DNA of 64,000 nucleotides from Escherichia phage vB_EcoP_HC-25922, in the sequence record OQ555404.1. One strand, given 5' to 3'. Shown here one piece after another: positions 3,822-58,707 of this stretch. Positions within the stretch are counted from its first letter, which is position 1. Every line of letters starts with the position of its first letter. The notes below the pieces were generated by a model. The model saw only the letters and a list, made by a program, of their open reading frames with translations, searched no databases and had not been told where the DNA came from. The translations under genes were made by a program, and so were the position numbers.

Positions 3822-6065
3822 ATGGCTAAGAAGAAATTTAGTGAAGATGTTTTGGATGAATTACGCGTTGACCTTCAACGTCGATTCAATTATGCTCAAG
3901 GTTATGTAGACTTAGCTGTAAAAGGCTATGCTCGTGAGGCTTGGGAATACTTCTATGGGAACCTTCCTGCTCCAGTTACTGCTGGTAGCTCTAGTTGGGT
4001 AGACCGTACGGTATGGGAATCAGTGAATGGTACGCTCCAAGATATCATTAATGTGTTCTGTTCTGGTGACGAAGCGGTAACTTTCGTAGCCGATAACCAA
4101 GAAGATAGTGATGCTGCTGACGTAGCCACTAAACTTGTCAACCAAATTTTGTTACGTGATAATCCGGGATACAATATTATCTCTTCAGCGGCACAAGAGT
4201 GTCTGGTTACACGTAACTCTTTTATTAAATATTATTGGGATGAACAAACTTCTACCCAAACAGAAGAAGCAGAGGGTGTTCCTCCGGAAGCTTTGGCTGC
4301 ATATGTCCAAGGTTTAGAAGCTGGTGGGCTTCAAGATTTAGAAATCTTTACCACTGACAACGAAGATGGTACAGTGGATGTTAAAGTAACTTACAAACAA
4401 ACAGTAAAACGCGTTAAAGTAGAATATGTTCCTTCAGAACAGATTTTTGTTGACGAACATGCTACCTCTTTTGCAGATGCTCAGTATTTCTGTCATCGCA
4501 CACGTAAATCTAAAGAAGATCTGGTTGCTATGGGCTTCCCTAAAGATGAAATTGAAGCTTTTAATGACTGGACTGATACAATGGACACCACTCAATCTAC
4601 TGTTGCATGGTCACGTACTGACTGGCGTCAGGATATAGATTCAGATATCGGTGTAGACACTGATGATATCGCTTCTATGGTTTGGGTTTACGAGCATTAC
4701 ATCCGTACTGGTGTACTGGATAAGAATAAAGAAGCAAAACTCTATCAAGTTATTCAAGCAGGTGAGCATATTCTCAGTTGTGAAGAAGTAACTAGCATTC
4801 CTTTTGTAACATTCTGCCCTTATCCTATTCCGGGTTCATTCTATGGACAATCTGTTTATGATATCACCAAAGATATTCAGGATTTGCGTACCGCTTTGGT
4901 TCGTGGTTATATCGATAACGTAAACAATGCTAACTATGGTCGTTATAAGGCTCTTGTAGGTGCTTATGACCGTCGTTCTCTACTGGATAACCGTCCGGGT
5001 GGTGTAGTAGAAATGGAGCGTCAGGATGCGATTGATCTCTTCCCTTACCACAATCTACCTCAGGGTATTGATGGCTTACTAGGAATGTCAGATGAGTTGA
5101 AAGAGACTCGTACTGGTGTTACTAAGCTTGGTATGGGCATTAACCCTGATGTGTTTAAGAATGATAACGCATATGCAACTGTTGGATTGATGATGAATGC
5201 TGCTCAGAACCGTCTCCGTATGGTCTGTCGTAACATTGCTCACAACGGTATGGTTGAATTGATGCGTGGTATTTATAATTTAGTCCGAGAAAATGGTGAG
5301 GTTCCTTTACAAGTACAAACCCCTCGTGGTATGGTTCAGGTTCATCCTAAACAACTGCCTGCTCGTCACAATCTACAAGTTGTTGTAGCTATCTCTCCTA
5401 GCGAGAAATCAGAACGTGCCCAGAAACTAATCAGCCTGAAGCAATTGATTGCTGCTGATGCTCAGTTAGCACCTCTGTTTACTCTGGAGCAAGATCGTTA
5501 CATGACTGCACAGATCTTCGAGTTGATGGGAATTAAAGATACTCACAAATACTTAATGCCTCTGGAACAATATCAACCGCCAGAACCTTCTCCGATGGAA
5601 ATCCTCCAGCTTGAGATGACTAAAGCACAGGTTGAGAACGTACAGGCTTCTTCTCAGAAGATGATTGCTGATGCATTCGACCAGCGTGAACGTACTACGT
5701 TTGAACAGCAGAAAGCTGCGGACGAGTTCAGCTTACGTCAAGAAGAACTGCAATTTAAGCAAGAGAATGCTGCTGATCAGATGACTTTGGAGAATCGTAA
5801 AGAAGACAACAGTGCTACACTTGAACAGGCTAAGCACAAGTTGGCTCTGCTCCAGCAACAGGTCCGTCAGTATGAATCTGTACTTAAAGAATTGCAGATG
5901 ACTCTTAATCATCAGGTCGATGTTGAGAAAGTTGCAAATCAGGCTAAAATTCAAGATAAGACTTTGGAACTCCAAAAGAAAGAAGCAAATGAAACTAAGA
6001 AAGAACAGCAAAGTTCAATCAAAGATTCACGGATTCCTAACCGTCGTCTTGGTAGTAGAAAATAA
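3822..6065 (+). CDS. portal protein (putative)
   Basis: 747-aa ORF directly after the terminase with GAGGGAG RBS; size, position and charged coiled-coil C-terminus fit a portal. Confidence 0.55.
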   Translation: MAKKKFSEDVLDELRVDLQRRFNYAQGYVDLAVKGYAREAWEYFYGNLPAPVTAGSSSWVDRTVWESVNGTLQDIINVFCSGDEAVTFVADNQEDSDAADVATKLVNQILLRDNPGYNIISSAAQECLVTRNSFIKYYWDEQTSTQTEEAEGVPPEALAAYVQGLEAGGLQDLEIFTTDNEDGTVDVKVTYKQTVKRVKVEYVPSEQIFVDEHATSFADAQYFCHRTRKSKEDLVAMGFPKDEIEAFNDWTDTMDTTQSTVAWSRTDWRQDIDSDIGVDTDDIASMVWVYEHYIRTGVLDKNKEAKLYQVIQAGEHILSCEEVTSIPFVTFCPYPIPGSFYGQSVYDITKDIQDLRTALVRGYIDNVNNANYGRYKALVGAYDRRSLLDNRPGGVVEMERQDAIDLFPYHNLPQGIDGLLGMSDELKETRTGVTKLGMGINPDVFKNDNAYATVGLMMNAAQNRLRMVCRNIAHNGMVELMRGIYNLVRENGEVPLQVQTPRGMVQVHPKQLPARHNLQVVVAISPSEKSERAQKLISLKQLIAADAQLAPLFTLEQDRYMTAQIFELMGIKDTHKYLMPLEQYQPPEPSPMEILQLEMTKAQVENVQASSQKMIADAFDQRERTTFEQQKAADEFSLRQEELQFKQENAADQMTLENRKEDNSATLEQAKHKLALLQQQVRQYESVLKELQMTLNHQVDVEKVANQAKIQDKTLELQKKEANETKKEQQSSIKDSRIPNRRLGSRK

Positions 6066-7393: not shown

Positions 7394-7433
7394 TCGACAA
7401 ATTTATTTTTAATAGTATAGGAGCTAATATAAC

Positions 7434-8492
7434 ATGGCAAATCCAACTTTATTTGTATCTTACGACCAGAATGGTAAAAAACTTTCTTTTGCTAACTGGA
7501 TTTCTGTCCTGTCTCCGCAAGACACTCCGTTTGTGTCTATGACTGGTAAAGAGTCTATCAATCAGACTATTTTCAGCTGGCAGACCGATGCTCTGGCGAG
7601 CGTAGATGCTAACAACGCCCACGTCGAAGGCTCTCGTGCTGAAGACGGCGAAATGAAACCGACTGTAATTAAGTCCAACGTTACTCAGATCCTGCGTAAA
7701 GTTGTTCGTGTTTCTGATACTGCTAACACCACCGCTAACTACGGTCGTGGTCGTGAACTGATGTATCAGCTGGAGAAGAAAGGTAAAGAGATTAAACGTG
7801 ACCTCGAGAAAATCTTGCTGTCCGGTCAGGCTCGTACCGATATTCTGGCAGACCAGTATCTGACCAACTCTGCAACTGATCCTGCTGTTGTAGGTCAGAA
7901 TGATACCTCAGCTGCTCGTAAGACTGGTGCTTTCCAGTTCCTGTGTGCACACAATGGTGTTGCTGGTGGTGTTGTTAAGAAAGAAGATGGTCCTGCTGAC
8001 CCGGATACTGGTGCAGTAACTGTTAAAGTTGCACAGAATGCTTCTAACCCGACTACTAACATCGGTTTTGATGAAGCTGATATCTTTGATATGACTCTGC
8101 AATTGTATACCGCTGGTTCTGAAGCAGACATCATCATGATTAACCCTGCTCACGCTAGTATTTTTGCTAAGCTTCAGGAAAACTCTGTTGGTTCTCGTCA
8201 GCGTATCTTTGAGAACACCAAACAGTTCATCTATGAAGTTAACAGCATCACTGACCCGCTGGGCCAGAGCTATAAAATCATCGTTAACCGTTGGATGCCT
8301 GCTGATGCAGTTTACTTCTTCCGCAGCTCTGACTGGACTCAGATGGTTCTTCGTGCTCCGAAACGTACTGAACTGGCGAAAGATGGTTCTTACGAGAAAT
8401 GGATGATCGAAATGGAAGTTGGTCTGCGTCACCGCAACCCGTATGCTTCTGGTGTACTGTTCACTGCTGCGGGAAAGGTGGGAGCGGCGTAA
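7434..8492 (+). CDS. major capsid protein
   Basis: 352-aa ORF with AGGAG RBS, strongly biased codon use, position after portal and scaffold, and a slippery site at its 3' end leading into an Ig-like extension. Confidence 0.7.
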   Translation: MANPTLFVSYDQNGKKLSFANWISVLSPQDTPFVSMTGKESINQTIFSWQTDALASVDANNAHVEGSRAEDGEMKPTVIKSNVTQILRKVVRVSDTANTTANYGRGRELMYQLEKKGKEIKRDLEKILLSGQARTDILADQYLTNSATDPAVVGQNDTSAARKTGAFQFLCAHNGVAGGVVKKEDGPADPDTGAVTVKVAQNASNPTTNIGFDEADIFDMTLQLYTAGSEADIIMINPAHASIFAKLQENSVGSRQRIFENTKQFIYEVNSITDPLGQSYKIIVNRWMPADAVYFFRSSDWTQMVLRAPKRTELAKDGSYEKWMIEMEVGLRHRNPYASGVLFTAAGKVGAA

Positions 8493-9271
8493 CAGTAGAT
8501 TCCGTAACTGTTAGTCCTTCGTCGGTTGCAAGCCTTCCGACGGGGGCTACTCAGCAGTTTACAGCTACAGCAGAAATGAGCGACGGCTCCACAAGCACAA
8601 CCGGATTTAATTGGTCCGTTGAGGGCGGTGGGGCTGTTTCTGTTTCTGGGCTATATACTGCACCGAGTACGTCGCAAGAAACCCCAGCAACTATTACGGC
8701 TACTAAAGGTGGTAAGTCAGGTACTGCTACAGTTCTATCTGTTTTTGAACCTGCTACTATTGAAGCCAAAGCTAACATCTCGGGTAAAGTAGGTGGAAGC
8801 ACCACAGCTTTTACTACAATGTTTACAGCAACTAACTCTTCAGCAGAAGATTATTCTTTTGTTGTATCTCCAACGTCAGCAGGAACCGTTAGTGCCGCAG
8901 GAGTTTTAACTTTAAGTAATGATGCAACTGGCACAGTTACTGTTAAAGCAACTCATAAAACTCAGTCAGGTGTTGAAGCCACTATAACCTTTACAGGTGT
9001 TGTTGCTAAAGCAGCTATTACTGGAAAAACCGTCACTGGTAAGGTTGGTAGTGATACTGTTACGTTTGCTGAGTTATTTACAGCAACTAACTCTTCAGCA
9101 GAAGATTACAACTTCGTATCAAGTCCTCCTGAAATGACTTCATCTATCGATGAGAGCACTGGTCTTGTTACCTTGGCTGCTGGCGCTACAGGTGATATCA
9201 CAATTACTGCTACTCACAAAACACAAACGTCTGTGACAGCAACTGCTACGATTACGGTGGTATCAGAGTAA
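8471..9271 (+). CDS. Ig-like (Big_2-type) C-terminal extension of the capsid protein, reached by -1 frameshift
   Basis: -1 frame open from inside the capsid gene; no independent RBS or start; slippery heptamer G_GGA_AAG at 8471-8477; three Ig-like repeats (VTVSPSSVASLPTGATQQFTAT..., two FTATNSSAEDY units). Confidence 0.6.
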   Translation, partial: GKGGSGVTVDSVTVSPSSVASLPTGATQQFTATAEMSDGSTSTTGFNWSVEGGGAVSVSGLYTAPSTSQETPATITATKGGKSGTATVLSVFEPATIEAKANISGKVGGSTTAFTTMFTATNSSAEDYSFVVSPTSAGTVSAAGVLTLSNDATGTVTVKATHKTQSGVEATITFTGVVAKAAITGKTVTGKVGSDTVTFAELFTATNSSAEDYNFVSSPPEMTSSIDESTGLVTLAAGATGDITITATHKTQTSVTATATITVVSE

Positions 9272-9378
9272 CTGTTATTCTACTAGCACTTATTGTCAGT
9301 GCAGGTGTGAAAATTACATTTAGAAAGAGTTCTGGTGTTTTCTGTAATCACTATGTTAAATCTAGTACATAAGAATAA

Positions 9379-9407
9379 AGCTGCCTTCGGGCGGCTTTTC
9401 TTGTTTT
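9379..9407 (+). terminator. intrinsic terminator (UUCG-loop hairpin plus T-run)
   Basis: agctgcc-ttcg-ggcggct hairpin followed by ttttcttgtttt. Confidence 0.6.
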
Positions 9408-9471
9408 AAGACCTATACACGACCGAATGTAATGTATATTCTTTGTCTACATACAACTAGGAGGACAATCT

Positions 9472-10224
9472 ATGGCTATGCCAGACGTTCAGAACCCAAT
9501 TAATACCTACGGATGGCTTAAGAAGGCTGTGTCCCTCTGGGCCGACCGTGATGACCCTGAATTTGTTAATCAGATTCCGAACTTTATTAACTTTGCAGAA
9601 AAGGAAATCTATCGTAATTTACGTATTCCTCCTTTGGAAAAAGAAGTATACTTAGATATTAAAGATGGTGTGGCTTTTATTCCACCAGACTATTTAGAAG
9701 CTCAGTGGATGATGAGAGCCAAAGATGGCACAATCTTCCAAGTAACCTCTCCTGAAGAGATTAGCTATCGTAGACAGCATGGAACAATTAACCCATCTCA
9801 CTGGAATAACCAACCTGTCAACTTTGCTCGTTTCGGTAGTCGTTTCATTTTCTACCCTAGCATCGAAGCAGATACCCCGTACTACCCTGATGATGGAAGC
9901 CCTTTGATTCCAGCAGAAAACTCAGTGATTCTTAGCTATTATGCAGACCCACCGGAATTCCATGAAGATACAGATACTAGTACTATTCTTACTATAGCAC
10001 CGGAACTTCTTCTGTACTTCACCCTACGTCATGCTTGTCTCTTTGTTCAAGATGATAATGGTGTTCAGAAATGGTCAGCATTAGGAAAAGCTATCCTTGA
10101 TGAAATGGTAGAACAGAATAAGAAACAAGAGTACTCAGGTTCACCTATCGCAATTCCGAATAACATGACTCGACTTCAGAGCAGCTTGCCTGATATTTAT
10201 GGTATTCGTACTTCTCGTGTATAA
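9472..10224 (+). CDS. hypothetical virion protein
   Basis: 250-aa ORF with AGGAGG RBS in the structural block. Confidence 0.45.
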   Translation: MAMPDVQNPINTYGWLKKAVSLWADRDDPEFVNQIPNFINFAEKEIYRNLRIPPLEKEVYLDIKDGVAFIPPDYLEAQWMMRAKDGTIFQVTSPEEISYRRQHGTINPSHWNNQPVNFARFGSRFIFYPSIEADTPYYPDDGSPLIPAENSVILSYYADPPEFHEDTDTSTILTIAPELLLYFTLRHACLFVQDDNGVQKWSALGKAILDEMVEQNKKQEYSGSPIAIPNNMTRLQSSLPDIYGIRTSRV

Positions 10225-56983: not shown

Positions 56984-58084
56984 TTACAGCAGTCGTTCTA
57001 ATTGCATTTCCAGATGGTCTGGAATATAACCAGTGACGTTATCATCACTGCTACCTGATTCACGCATCAATGCAAACATGTGACGAATTTCACGAACCGT
57101 TGCGATTCGAGTGCTTTCAATCTGAGGGGTGTAGTAGGTCATGATCTCTTCGTAGACACTGTTGGCATTACCGCGCACATATCCCAAGAAACCATAGAAG
57201 TCATTCATATCACGTAAGTTGATAAGGACTTCACCATCAGGGCCAGTCTGTTGCACACGAACACGACCAACCAAAGTTACAGATTGCTCACGACAGAAGA
57301 GAATATCACGAGCAAGACGATACCCTTCAGTGAGATCACTGTCTCTTGGAGTATAGTCTAGGGGTAGATGTTGAATCATAGGAGCGAAGCGCAGCTCATT
57401 CAACTTCTCAACATAAGCTTCATTGTCTAAATCTGCATATTCAACAGCCAGTTTCTTGAGAACCAAGAAGCGGTTGACCAGATTCAGAAGTTGGCTCTTT
57501 TTCCACTTCGGCTCTGAGATACGGAACTCAACAGAACCAAATTGAGATAGAGGCAAAAGATTAAGGGAGGTATATTTATCCCAGCTATTAACAAGAGAGT
57601 GGAAGAAAGCTTCCCCGTCTCGGTTGAACGCTGACGAAGCATTCATAACTTGTGCTTGAACGACAGCAAAAGCTGGACAGAAGTTGCTACGATAGCGATG
57701 GTATCCAGAACATTTGAACATCATCTTTTCATAGAACGTCCATCCAAGAATAACTTTCTTAAGGATATTACTATCAGCGTCACGCATATCCATATGAACG
57801 TGAGTGGAGCAGCGCCAAGTTCCCTCGGCTCCAGAATCCTGTACTGCTTCACTCAGATTGTTAATAGCACGAAGTAATTCTTCACCGTTGTAAGGTCGTG
57901 CACATACTAATTCACAACCATCACGAAGAGAGCCATCTTCAGTACAAACCCACATATCAGCGTCAATGTCAGTTGTACCTTCGACTTCTAACTCAATACC
58001 AACACCACACTGAAAAGCAATACTTGGATGCGGTTCAGATAAGCGAGGGTTACGGTATCCAAAAACTTGTGCTACGGTTGTCAT
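56984..58084 (-). CDS. glutamine-synthetase-like carboxylate-amine ligase (amidoligase, YbdK/GCS2-like)
   Basis: GIELEVEG (E.E motif), DGSLRDGCELV and STHVHMDM (H.H motif) in the order seen in GS-like COOH-NH2 ligases. Confidence 0.55.
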   Translation of the reverse strand: MTTVAQVFGYRNPRLSEPHPSIAFQCGVGIELEVEGTTDIDADMWVCTEDGSLRDGCELVCARPYNGEELLRAINNLSEAVQDSGAEGTWRCSTHVHMDMRDADSNILKKVILGWTFYEKMMFKCSGYHRYRSNFCPAFAVVQAQVMNASSAFNRDGEAFFHSLVNSWDKYTSLNLLPLSQFGSVEFRISEPKWKKSQLLNLVNRFLVLKKLAVEYADLDNEAYVEKLNELRFAPMIQHLPLDYTPRDSDLTEGYRLARDILFCREQSVTLVGRVRVQQTGPDGEVLINLRDMNDFYGFLGYVRGNANSVYEEIMTYYTPQIESTRIATVREIRHMFALMRESGSSDDNVTGYIPDHLEMQLERLL

Positions 58085-58707
58085 AATGATTCCACCAACT
58101 CTACATTATATGATGACAGGTCTGAAGAAATATGCTTGAACTTCTCCAGAAGGTTTAAAGATTGACGACCATTGTCGCCATAACCAGCTTCAAGAAGCAC
58201 GTTTCCAACGTAAGCCCCTTTGTAATAAACTTTTCCATCGACAGGATTGATATAGATGAAACGAGTAACCAACCCTTCAAACTCTGGATTAAACAGGTTG
58301 TACACCAAATCACCCGGAATCGAACGTCCGAGAGAAGGTGGAGTACCACGAAGTTTATTCCCCATCAAGCCTTTAGCTCGCTGACGAACAGGGTTGATAT
58401 GGGTCCAGCTCACCATGTTATTGCCATGCTGAAGGTATCCTACATCTGGAGACTCCAGAATGAGGCTGTGATCAAACACTGGGATATTACTAACAATCTG
58501 ACGTTCAAACTGACCTTCGGAGTTTTTAGTCCAGCGCTCCGCCTCAAACACTAAAGACATTTCAGCGTCGTGTGAGTAGTCGTCGATATCAAAGTTACCT
58601 TGCTGACGAACATCAAGCACATATAGAGGGAGGTTTTTACCATCAGGTGATCGCTGAGCAATCCATGTTCCACAATAATAGTGTTGAAAATCTCTTAACA
58701 AGCTCAC
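58081..58707 (-). CDS. hypothetical protein
   Basis: 208-aa ORF within the ligase locus. Confidence 0.45.
   Translation of the reverse strand: MSLLRDFQHYYCGTWIAQRSPDGKNLPLYVLDVRQQGNFDIDDYSHDAEMSLVFEAERWTKNSEGQFERQIVSNIPVFDHSLILESPDVGYLQHGNNMVSWTHINPVRQRAKGLMGNKLRGTPPSLGRSIPGDLVYNLFNPEFEGLVTRFIYINPVDGKVYYKGAYVGNVLLEAGYGDNGRQSLNLLEKFKHISSDLSSYNVELVESL

Follow-up and report, generated by a model that had tools for sequence, protein, structure and literature searches.

A conserved GGGAAAG slip site and the probable fusion of capsid protein to Ig-like modules in Escherichia phage vB_EcoP_HC-25922

In Escherichia phage vB_EcoP_HC-25922 the major capsid gene is overlapped at its end by a reading frame in the −1 register, which runs on past the capsid stop codon and encodes Ig-like modules. 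This raises the question whether the Ig-like sequence is a gene of its own or the carboxy-terminal part of a second, longer capsid protein which is made when ribosomes slip back by one base. An earlier note, made from the sequence alone, had proposed the latter. The locus was now analysed in a window of 64,000 nucleotides of the sequence record OQ555404.1, to which all positions refer; features are on the plus strand unless stated otherwise.

The open reading frames surrounding the locus match the Pfam families SU10_portal (3822–6065), SU10_MCP (7434–8492, E=2.6e-79), and SU10_adaptor (9472–10224). The stretch from 7434 to 9271 is 98.9% identical at the nucleotide level to phage NC-B and 84–94% identical to dozens of Kuravirus-like E. 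coli and Shigella podophages, and the capsid protein shares about 94% of its residues with the major head protein of SU10 (cryo-EM structure 7Z45). By these Pfam matches and sequence identities the window is assigned to a phiEco32/SU10-like phage of the subfamily Gordonclarkvirinae. The gene order of portal, small open reading frame, scaffold, major capsid protein (MCP), and adaptor is common to the window and its Kuravirus relatives. The unit of capsid gene and extension is closed by an intrinsic-terminator-like hairpin with a T-run at 9377–9408, counterparts of which are annotated in SU10 and Paul.

The MCP gene (7434–8492) is preceded by a GGAG Shine-Dalgarno sequence at 7420–7423, encodes 352 amino acids in the zero frame, and terminates at the TAA at 8490–8492, which ends the short, major form of the capsid protein. 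The slippery heptamer G_GGA_AAG is located at 8471–8477; its position and the end of the capsid reading frame at 8492 had both been given correctly in the earlier note. With the phase taken from the ATG at 7434 the zero-frame codons read GCG GGA AAG, which is the X_XXY_YYZ register for tandem tRNA slippage, with GGA in the P site, AAG in the A site, and re-pairing on GGG and AAA. This heptamer is identical to the site in the tail chaperone genes G/GT of phage lambda. The single tRNA-Lys of E. coli has a preference for AAA, and on this heptamer both tRNAs can re-pair. By itself the heptamer is not rare, as the window contains four copies of GGGAAAG when both strands are counted, but the copy at 8471–8477 is the only one which stands in frame in a long open reading frame and is followed by a long open −1 frame. 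The other copies (41172, 62391, and 33281 on the minus strand) were rejected as shift sites because none of them is in frame in a long open reading frame. A T_TTA_AAC at the end of the minus-strand open reading frame 58707–58081 was likewise rejected, as the downstream gene there has a start of its own and the overlap is an ordinary ATGA.

The first codon past a −1 slip is GGT at 8477–8479, and the frame then stays open until the TAA at 9269–9271. This extension (8477–9271) consists of a GGSG linker and three Ig-like modules. It comprises 264 codons after the lysine of the slip site or 259 beyond the MCP stop; the open frame had been recognised before, with a figure of 260 codons. The chance of a random frame remaining open for this length is about 3e-6 by our own calculation, (61/64)^266. 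The fusion of 7434–8477 with the extension has a computed length of 612 amino acids and a mass of 64.3 kDa, compared to 38.6 kDa for the short form. A larger species is thus predicted as before, with a difference of 25.7 kDa instead of the approximately 27 kDa of the earlier note. Translation confirms the proposed junction, ...FTAAGK followed by GGSGVTVDSVTV, the extension beginning with GGSGVTVDSV. The lysine at the junction is a trypsin site; a peptide spanning the junction can be obtained with chymotrypsin or Glu-C, for example TAAGKGGSGVTVDSVTVSPSSVASL. The tryptic peptide which starts with the first residues of the extension is encoded 5' of every possible start codon.

Module 1 (8495–8728, residues 7–84 of the extension) is a Big_2 domain (PF02368), matched with 39.7 bits at a gathering cut-off of 22.8, and it begins 5' of any possible start codon. 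It was assigned by the Pfam match since its AlphaFold2 confidence is low, which is due to homologue rows being truncated at mis-called starts. Module 2 (8750–9004, residues 92–176 approximately) and module 3 (9005–9262, residues 177–262 approximately) are the first and the second copy of a repeat of about 85 amino acids, delimited by AlphaFold2, Foldseek, and alignment. Both are predicted by AlphaFold2 to be all-beta sandwiches with pLDDT values above 90, and Foldseek matches the models to LigA Big domains, RTX adhesin repeats, and cadherin/Ig arrays in the PDB. For modules 2 and 3 the resemblance to Ig domains is one of fold only. With one Big_2 domain and two beta-sandwich repeats, three Ig-like repeats is a fair description of the extension.

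For comparison 28 Kuravirus-like loci from isolates and metagenomes were collected (IMG/VR, metagenomes, and GenBank). GGGAAAG occurs in the same frame, 13–19 nucleotides 5' of the MCP stop, in all 28; one of the counts used a pattern which required the heptamer, and a separate pattern-free scan yielded no Kuravirus-like locus lacking it. The loci represent 23 distinct contexts of 150 nucleotides, all of which contain the heptamer, with varying third positions around it. The −1 frame is open for 178–545 codons in 27 of the 28 loci, and the +1 frame closes after 2–7 codons in every one. The single exception is the deposited SU10 sequence, in which the −1 frame is closed after 11 codons, an early closure likewise remarked on in the YF01 paper (PMC9965538). 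The extension of the window, with its 264 codons, falls within this range, and the length varies because the copy number of the repeat differs and because some relatives carry an extra C-terminal domain. In the 27 codons just past the MCP stop dN/dS is 0.20 in the −1 frame and a serine codon has switched from TCC to AGT; both other frames of this stretch hold stops in 17 out of 17 distinct sequences. In 27 of the 28 loci the extension has remained intact and is subject to purifying selection.

A −1 frameshift which joins capsid protein and Ig-like domains is already published for the Kuravirus group, namely for phiEco32, SU10, Privateer, YF01, and Paul. SU10 has the heptamer GGGAAAG and two forms of the head protein, 38.5 and 55.4 kDa, as determined by mass spectrometry (PMC4281155). 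Two capsid forms of phiEco32 are quoted in the papers on SU10 and Privateer (PMC4281155, PMC7881722). Privateer has the same heptamer, shows two bands in SDS-PAGE, and its long form was identified by LC-MS/MS (PMC7881722). A −1 slip at GGGAAAG has also been described for YF01 "and other group phages" (PMC9965538). The two pieces are annotated as a join in the GenBank record of YF01, in the RefSeq record of Paul, with the note "Frameshift at GGGAAAG", and in that of Privateer. The arrangements in phiEco32, SU10, Paul, and YF01 have the same SU10_MCP family, heptamer, position, and Big_2-type extension as the window, and nothing essential differs. The Proteus phage Privateer, a member of Grimontviridae, shares heptamer and frame with the window and contains the long form in its virions, but its MCP is just 58% identical, its stop adjoins the heptamer (GGA AAG TAA; G_GGA_AAG_TAA), and its extension of 168 codons past the stop has I-set-like sequence. 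The features which a −1 frameshift into the Ig-like domains predicts at the level of sequence were all found, and close relatives provide experimental support for the same site; what is unsupported in the earlier note is only a stimulatory role of its hairpin. With the published cases of SU10, Privateer, YF01, and Paul, the interpretation of the note is right and the feature is already known for the phage genus.

More distant relatives reach a similar product in other ways. In P0058 (585 amino acids, locus L015) and P0021 (490 amino acids, locus L016) SU10_MCP and Big_2 form one uninterrupted open reading frame, as was checked on the contig DNA, and the junctions between capsid and Ig-like parts align with the predicted frameshift junction. 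A clade of Aeromonas and soil phages (LAh/L009) carries G_GTA_AAG at the same place, followed 6 nucleotides downstream by a GC hairpin and by an Ig-like −1 open reading frame of 88–169 codons. The metagenomic phage L014 has A_AAA_AAG at this place. Phages resembling 7-11 (Salmonella SE131, loci L015 and L028) arrive at the same outcome, a plain MCP and an MCP with C-terminal Big_2 domains, without a frameshift: they have two tandem MCP paralogues, the second of which continues in frame into Ig domains, and the two genes are separated by a strong hairpin resembling an intrinsic terminator.

The Ig-like open reading frame could nevertheless be an independent gene which uses its own, possibly non-canonical start past the capsid stop, the heptamer being coincidental. 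Most GenBank and RefSeq records annotate it in this way, as an "Ig domain containing protein", and the paper on the cryo-EM structure of the SU10 head, in which no Ig density was seen, treats gp10 as a separate protein (PMC9509320). Separate Ig-like genes with their own start in related phages had also been named in the earlier note as an observation which would speak against a fusion. The records which have such a gene, however, let it start +6, +12, +33, +84, or +127 nucleotides past the MCP stop; none of these starts is conserved, all of them cut into the Big_2 domain, and five differing starts are what gene callers produce when no real start exists. Among the loci compared no conserved initiation codon or Shine-Dalgarno sequence was found for the −1 open reading frame, and the first in-frame ATG, GTG, or TTG is found at +30, +54, +105, or +144 nucleotides from the start of the heptamer, varying from phage to phage. 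In the window the first downstream start is the ATG at 8576, which is inside Big_2, lacks a Shine-Dalgarno sequence, and is replaced by AAA in the other subclade, comprising half of the relatives; purifying selection acts on the 27 codons before it, which belong to Big_2. Upstream, the −1 frame contains a single ATG, at 8399; it was rejected as a start, as it is inside the MCP gene, is not conserved, and is located where the −1 frame is closed in many relatives, in which this frame opens just 76–154 nucleotides before the MCP stop. The claim that the extension has neither a start codon nor a ribosome binding site of its own has held. As the heptamer is moreover present in 28 of 28 loci and distant relatives encode the fusion in a single open reading frame, an independent gene is very improbable.

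A slip site could also be present as a decaying or very inefficient relic with negligible slippage and an extension which does nothing for the virion; SU10 appears to be such a case. This is suggested by the shut −1 frame of SU10, by its head without Ig density, and by the absence of a canonical stimulator. Early closure of the frame together with the lack of Ig density means that the long form is dispensable in at least one relative, SU10. Against a relic in general stand the intact extension under purifying selection in the other 27 loci, its expansion up to 545 codons in some phages, and the long forms observed in Privateer and, through mass spectrometry, in SU10 itself, so that we regard this explanation as hardly credible for the window. 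Least probable of all is a junction of the two frames in the RNA through transcriptional slippage, or an in-frame fusion which only looks broken owing to an error of assembly or sequencing: nothing specific speaks for either except that in-frame fusions exist in distant relatives, while the same frame arrangement and zero-frame stop recur in 28 loci which were obtained independently, from isolates as well as metagenomes, and the A-run of only 3 nucleotides is well below the roughly 7–9 nucleotides which transcriptional slippage needs. Taken jointly, an independent gene, a non-functional relic, and an RNA-level or assembly artefact retain a small share of the probability.

The reading which we prefer is that a −1 tandem slip at G_GGA_AAG very probably gives rise to a minor capsid–Ig protein of 612 amino acids which is incorporated into heads. 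Most ribosomes would translate 7434–8492 to the 352 amino acid, 38.6 kDa capsid protein with HK97 fold. A minority would slip at 8471–8477, where the tRNA-Gly on GGA and the tRNA-Lys on AAG would move back by one base to GGG and AAA. Translation in the −1 frame from the GGT at 8477 to 9271 would then yield capsid residues 1–348 followed by the GGSG linker, Big_2, and the two further Ig-like modules. The long form would co-assemble as a minority of the capsid subunits and display its Ig-like array on the surface of the head. A comparable strategy is found in 10A/10B of T7, T3, and K1F, where ribosomes shift to −1 shortly before the major capsid gene ends and make a minor subunit with a C-terminal extension, which is displayed by a subset of the capsid subunits. 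T7 probably differs from the window in having another slippery sequence, a capsid protein of another sequence family, and a much shorter extension. The lambda G/GT system resembles the window in that a −1 shift of low percentage, placed towards the 3' end of the upstream open reading frame, fixes the ratio of short to long product; it concerns a tail chaperone, however, and its long form is an assembly factor which is not kept in the virion, whereas that of the window would be structural. The rate of the lambda G/GT shift is about 3.5%, as quoted in the YF01 paper (PMC9965538). By analogy, the slip in the window probably has an efficiency of a few per cent. An external location of the Ig array on the head and a role in adhesion to carbohydrates or surfaces appear plausible.

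Stimulatory structures or Shine-Dalgarno-like elements are common for bacterial −1 frameshifts, yet they are not obligatory. A Shine-Dalgarno-like element about 10 nucleotides upstream of the heptamer was not found in the sequence. Classical stimulatory structures follow the slip site after a spacer of 5–9 nucleotides, and nothing significant was found at this spacing from the heptamer, for which reason the efficiency of the slip may be low. The earlier note had pointed to a 7-bp hairpin following the site, which was considered as a stimulator. The inverted repeat TAACAGT/ACTGTTA does exist, one base away from the coordinates given there, with arms at 8490–8496 and 8507–8513, a loop of 10 nucleotides, and its beginning 12 nucleotides 3' of the heptamer. 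It is, however, not the local minimum-energy fold (z +0.27 against dinucleotide shuffles), its stability compared to synonymous recoding is at chance level (z −0.4), and its 3' arm is taken up by a stronger hairpin at 8506–8559. It is invariant in 17 distinct relatives and therefore offers no covariation evidence, and in Bas93 and Bas94, where the stop codon has moved, it loses one pair. As neither null model sets it above chance, as it does not vary, and as a stronger fold competes with it, this hairpin was dismissed as a stimulator and is unsupported as a functional element. A stem-loop enclosing the heptamer (CTGCTGC...GCGGCGG), proposed in the SU10 paper (PMC4281155), was not accepted as a downstream block either, since its 5' arm would already be within the ribosome at decoding. 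The region 8440–8530 as a whole folds no better than shuffled sequences (z −0.37).

A different element emerged further downstream, a long imperfect hairpin within the extension open reading frame at 8506–8559, with 18 consensus pairs and a loop at 8526–8536. It starts 28 nucleotides past the heptamer and 13 nucleotides past the MCP stop, and has a folding energy of −26 kcal/mol (8504–8563). Compared to synonymous recoding with the phage's own codon usage its stability corresponds to a z of −5.0 in the window and of −4.8, −6.0, −3.4, and −5.1 in four divergent relatives; at most 2 in 1000 recodings are as stable as the native hairpin. Among 286 segments of sixty nucleotides covering MCP and extension it is the strongest outlier, with a z of −4.6 versus −3.2 for the next independent segment. 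In 14 distinct sequences 99.2% of the cells at paired positions can pair, compared to 94% after shuffling of columns and 29–48% with slid partners. One pair is seen as U-A, G-C, and A-U, another one as G-C and U-G, and four more show compatible one-sided changes. These apparently compensatory changes are good evidence for the hairpin, though not conclusive because the independent substitution events are few. An Rfam search of 8300–8800 yielded no family even at E values up to 10.

This distal hairpin is not a classical frameshift stimulator, as at a distance of 28 nucleotides it is outside the mRNA channel of a ribosome with GGA and AAG in its P and A sites. It may have a function as an RNA element within the capsid operon, which we would put forward only tentatively. 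Acting over an unusual distance, it could adjust how much short and how much long capsid protein is made. A second possibility is a decay barrier or processing site by which the capsid message with its heavy translation is shielded from the extension, where translation is sparse; the hairpin would then be the counterpart of the terminator between the capsid genes of the 7-11-like phages. In the G_GTA_AAG clade a second hairpin (z −3.4) occurs at +24 nucleotides, a distance similar to that of the hairpin in the window. No published description of the 8506–8559 hairpin was found in the literature, which was covered incompletely, and the hairpin may be an addition to the published picture. The same may apply to the comparative pattern, in which the SU10_MCP family arrives at a capsid of two isoforms by at least three routes, namely slippage on different motifs, a pair of tandem paralogues with a terminator between them, and constitutive fusion.

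For annotation the matter is settled in that the capsid gene is to be entered with two products joined at 8477, and not as a capsid protein next to a separate "Ig domain containing protein", while most public records of this phage group keep the form of a separate gene with inconsistent start codons. The fusion would place a variable Ig-like array on part of the head in gut-derived E. coli phages. While not new for this group of phages, this is of relevance to ideas on the adhesion of phages to mucus or cell surfaces and to a use of the site for capsid display.

Most GenBank and RefSeq records of Kuravirus-like phages list the reading frame that continues the capsid gene in frame -1 (8477-9271) as a gene of its own, named either "Ig domain containing protein" or "hypothetical protein"; the survey took in the loci L001, L003, L036, L043-L050, and L053-L057. 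Five different start-codon offsets are found for this separately annotated extension, and among the records inspected a join is annotated only in YF01, Paul, and Privateer. The extension is of modular build. In an alignment of the extensions in which an Ig-like repeat of about 85 amino acids is visible, the copy number of this repeat ranges from none to at least four in the relatives, with two copies in the window (8750-9262). Many relatives carry an additional C-terminal domain of about 110 amino acids with the end ...FRTYIVKSGA, which is absent from the extension of the window. In phage Bas86 an HNH endonuclease gene (4024-4536 of the collected locus) separates the Ig extension from the adaptor gene. 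In the window this interval (9272-9471) is a spacer of 200 nt that holds nothing but a terminator.

Within the extension reading frame a long, conserved hairpin is located at 8506-8559. Its stability greatly exceeds that of synonymous recodings of the same stretch (z about -5), and it shows compensatory changes among Kuravirus-like phages. As it lies 28 nt from the slippery heptamer G_GGA_AAG, it is too distant for a classical stimulator. No mention of this hairpin was found in the accessible literature.

In the deposited sequence of phage SU10 (KM044272) the -1 frame is shut 11 codons past the heptamer, the local sequence (1391-1440 of the collected locus) being GACACTGTCTACTG versus GACAGTGTGACTG in relatives. 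This closure is consistent with PMC9965538 but fits poorly with the 55.4-kDa form detected in SU10 by mass spectrometry (PMC4281155); the strain may have mutated here, or the sequence may be in error.

Other clades have other slip motifs at this position of the capsid gene. In seven loci from Aeromonas LAh-like and soil metagenome phages (L009-L012, L026, L027, and L032) the capsid gene ends with ...AAG GTA AAG GCG TAA at about locus position 4909-4924 and is followed by an Ig-like -1 reading frame of 88-169 codons. The slip is likely to take place at the noncanonical G_GTA_AAG, which a GC-rich hairpin follows after 6 nt, and a frameshift annotation is absent from the records of these loci. 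On the minus strand of the window (58081-58160) a T_TTA_AAC close to the end of a 208-amino acid reading frame, the -1 frame of which runs on for 365 codons, was rejected as a frameshift site, as on inspection the next gene simply starts at the stop of this reading frame, in the common ATGA overlap.

Three or four paralogues of the capsid gene (Pfam SU10_MCP) stand in tandem in a 124.9-kb IMG/VR contig (L014, 1-4933), in Aeromonas phage APT65 (L041, 2569-6763), and in Cronobacter phage GAP52 (L040). The final paralogue of the IMG/VR contig terminates with the dnaX-type heptamer A_AAA_AAG and a 40-codon -1 extension. In the GAP52 record the portal gene (1-1096) is split into two overlapping coding sequences, 1-393 and 356-1096, an arrangement that might stem either from a frameshift or from faulty sequencing in that record. 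The 7-11-like relatives, Salmonella phage SE131 (L042, 1485-4261), L015 (690-3469), and L028, have their capsid genes paired in tandem, a short capsid protein together with one to which Big_2 domains are joined in frame. A strong terminator-like hairpin with a T-run lies between the two genes (2445-2470 in SE131 and 1647-1677 in L015). In 7-11-like phages the same capsid of two isoforms, a plain protein and a form with C-terminal Ig-like domains, is reached by a transcriptional route.
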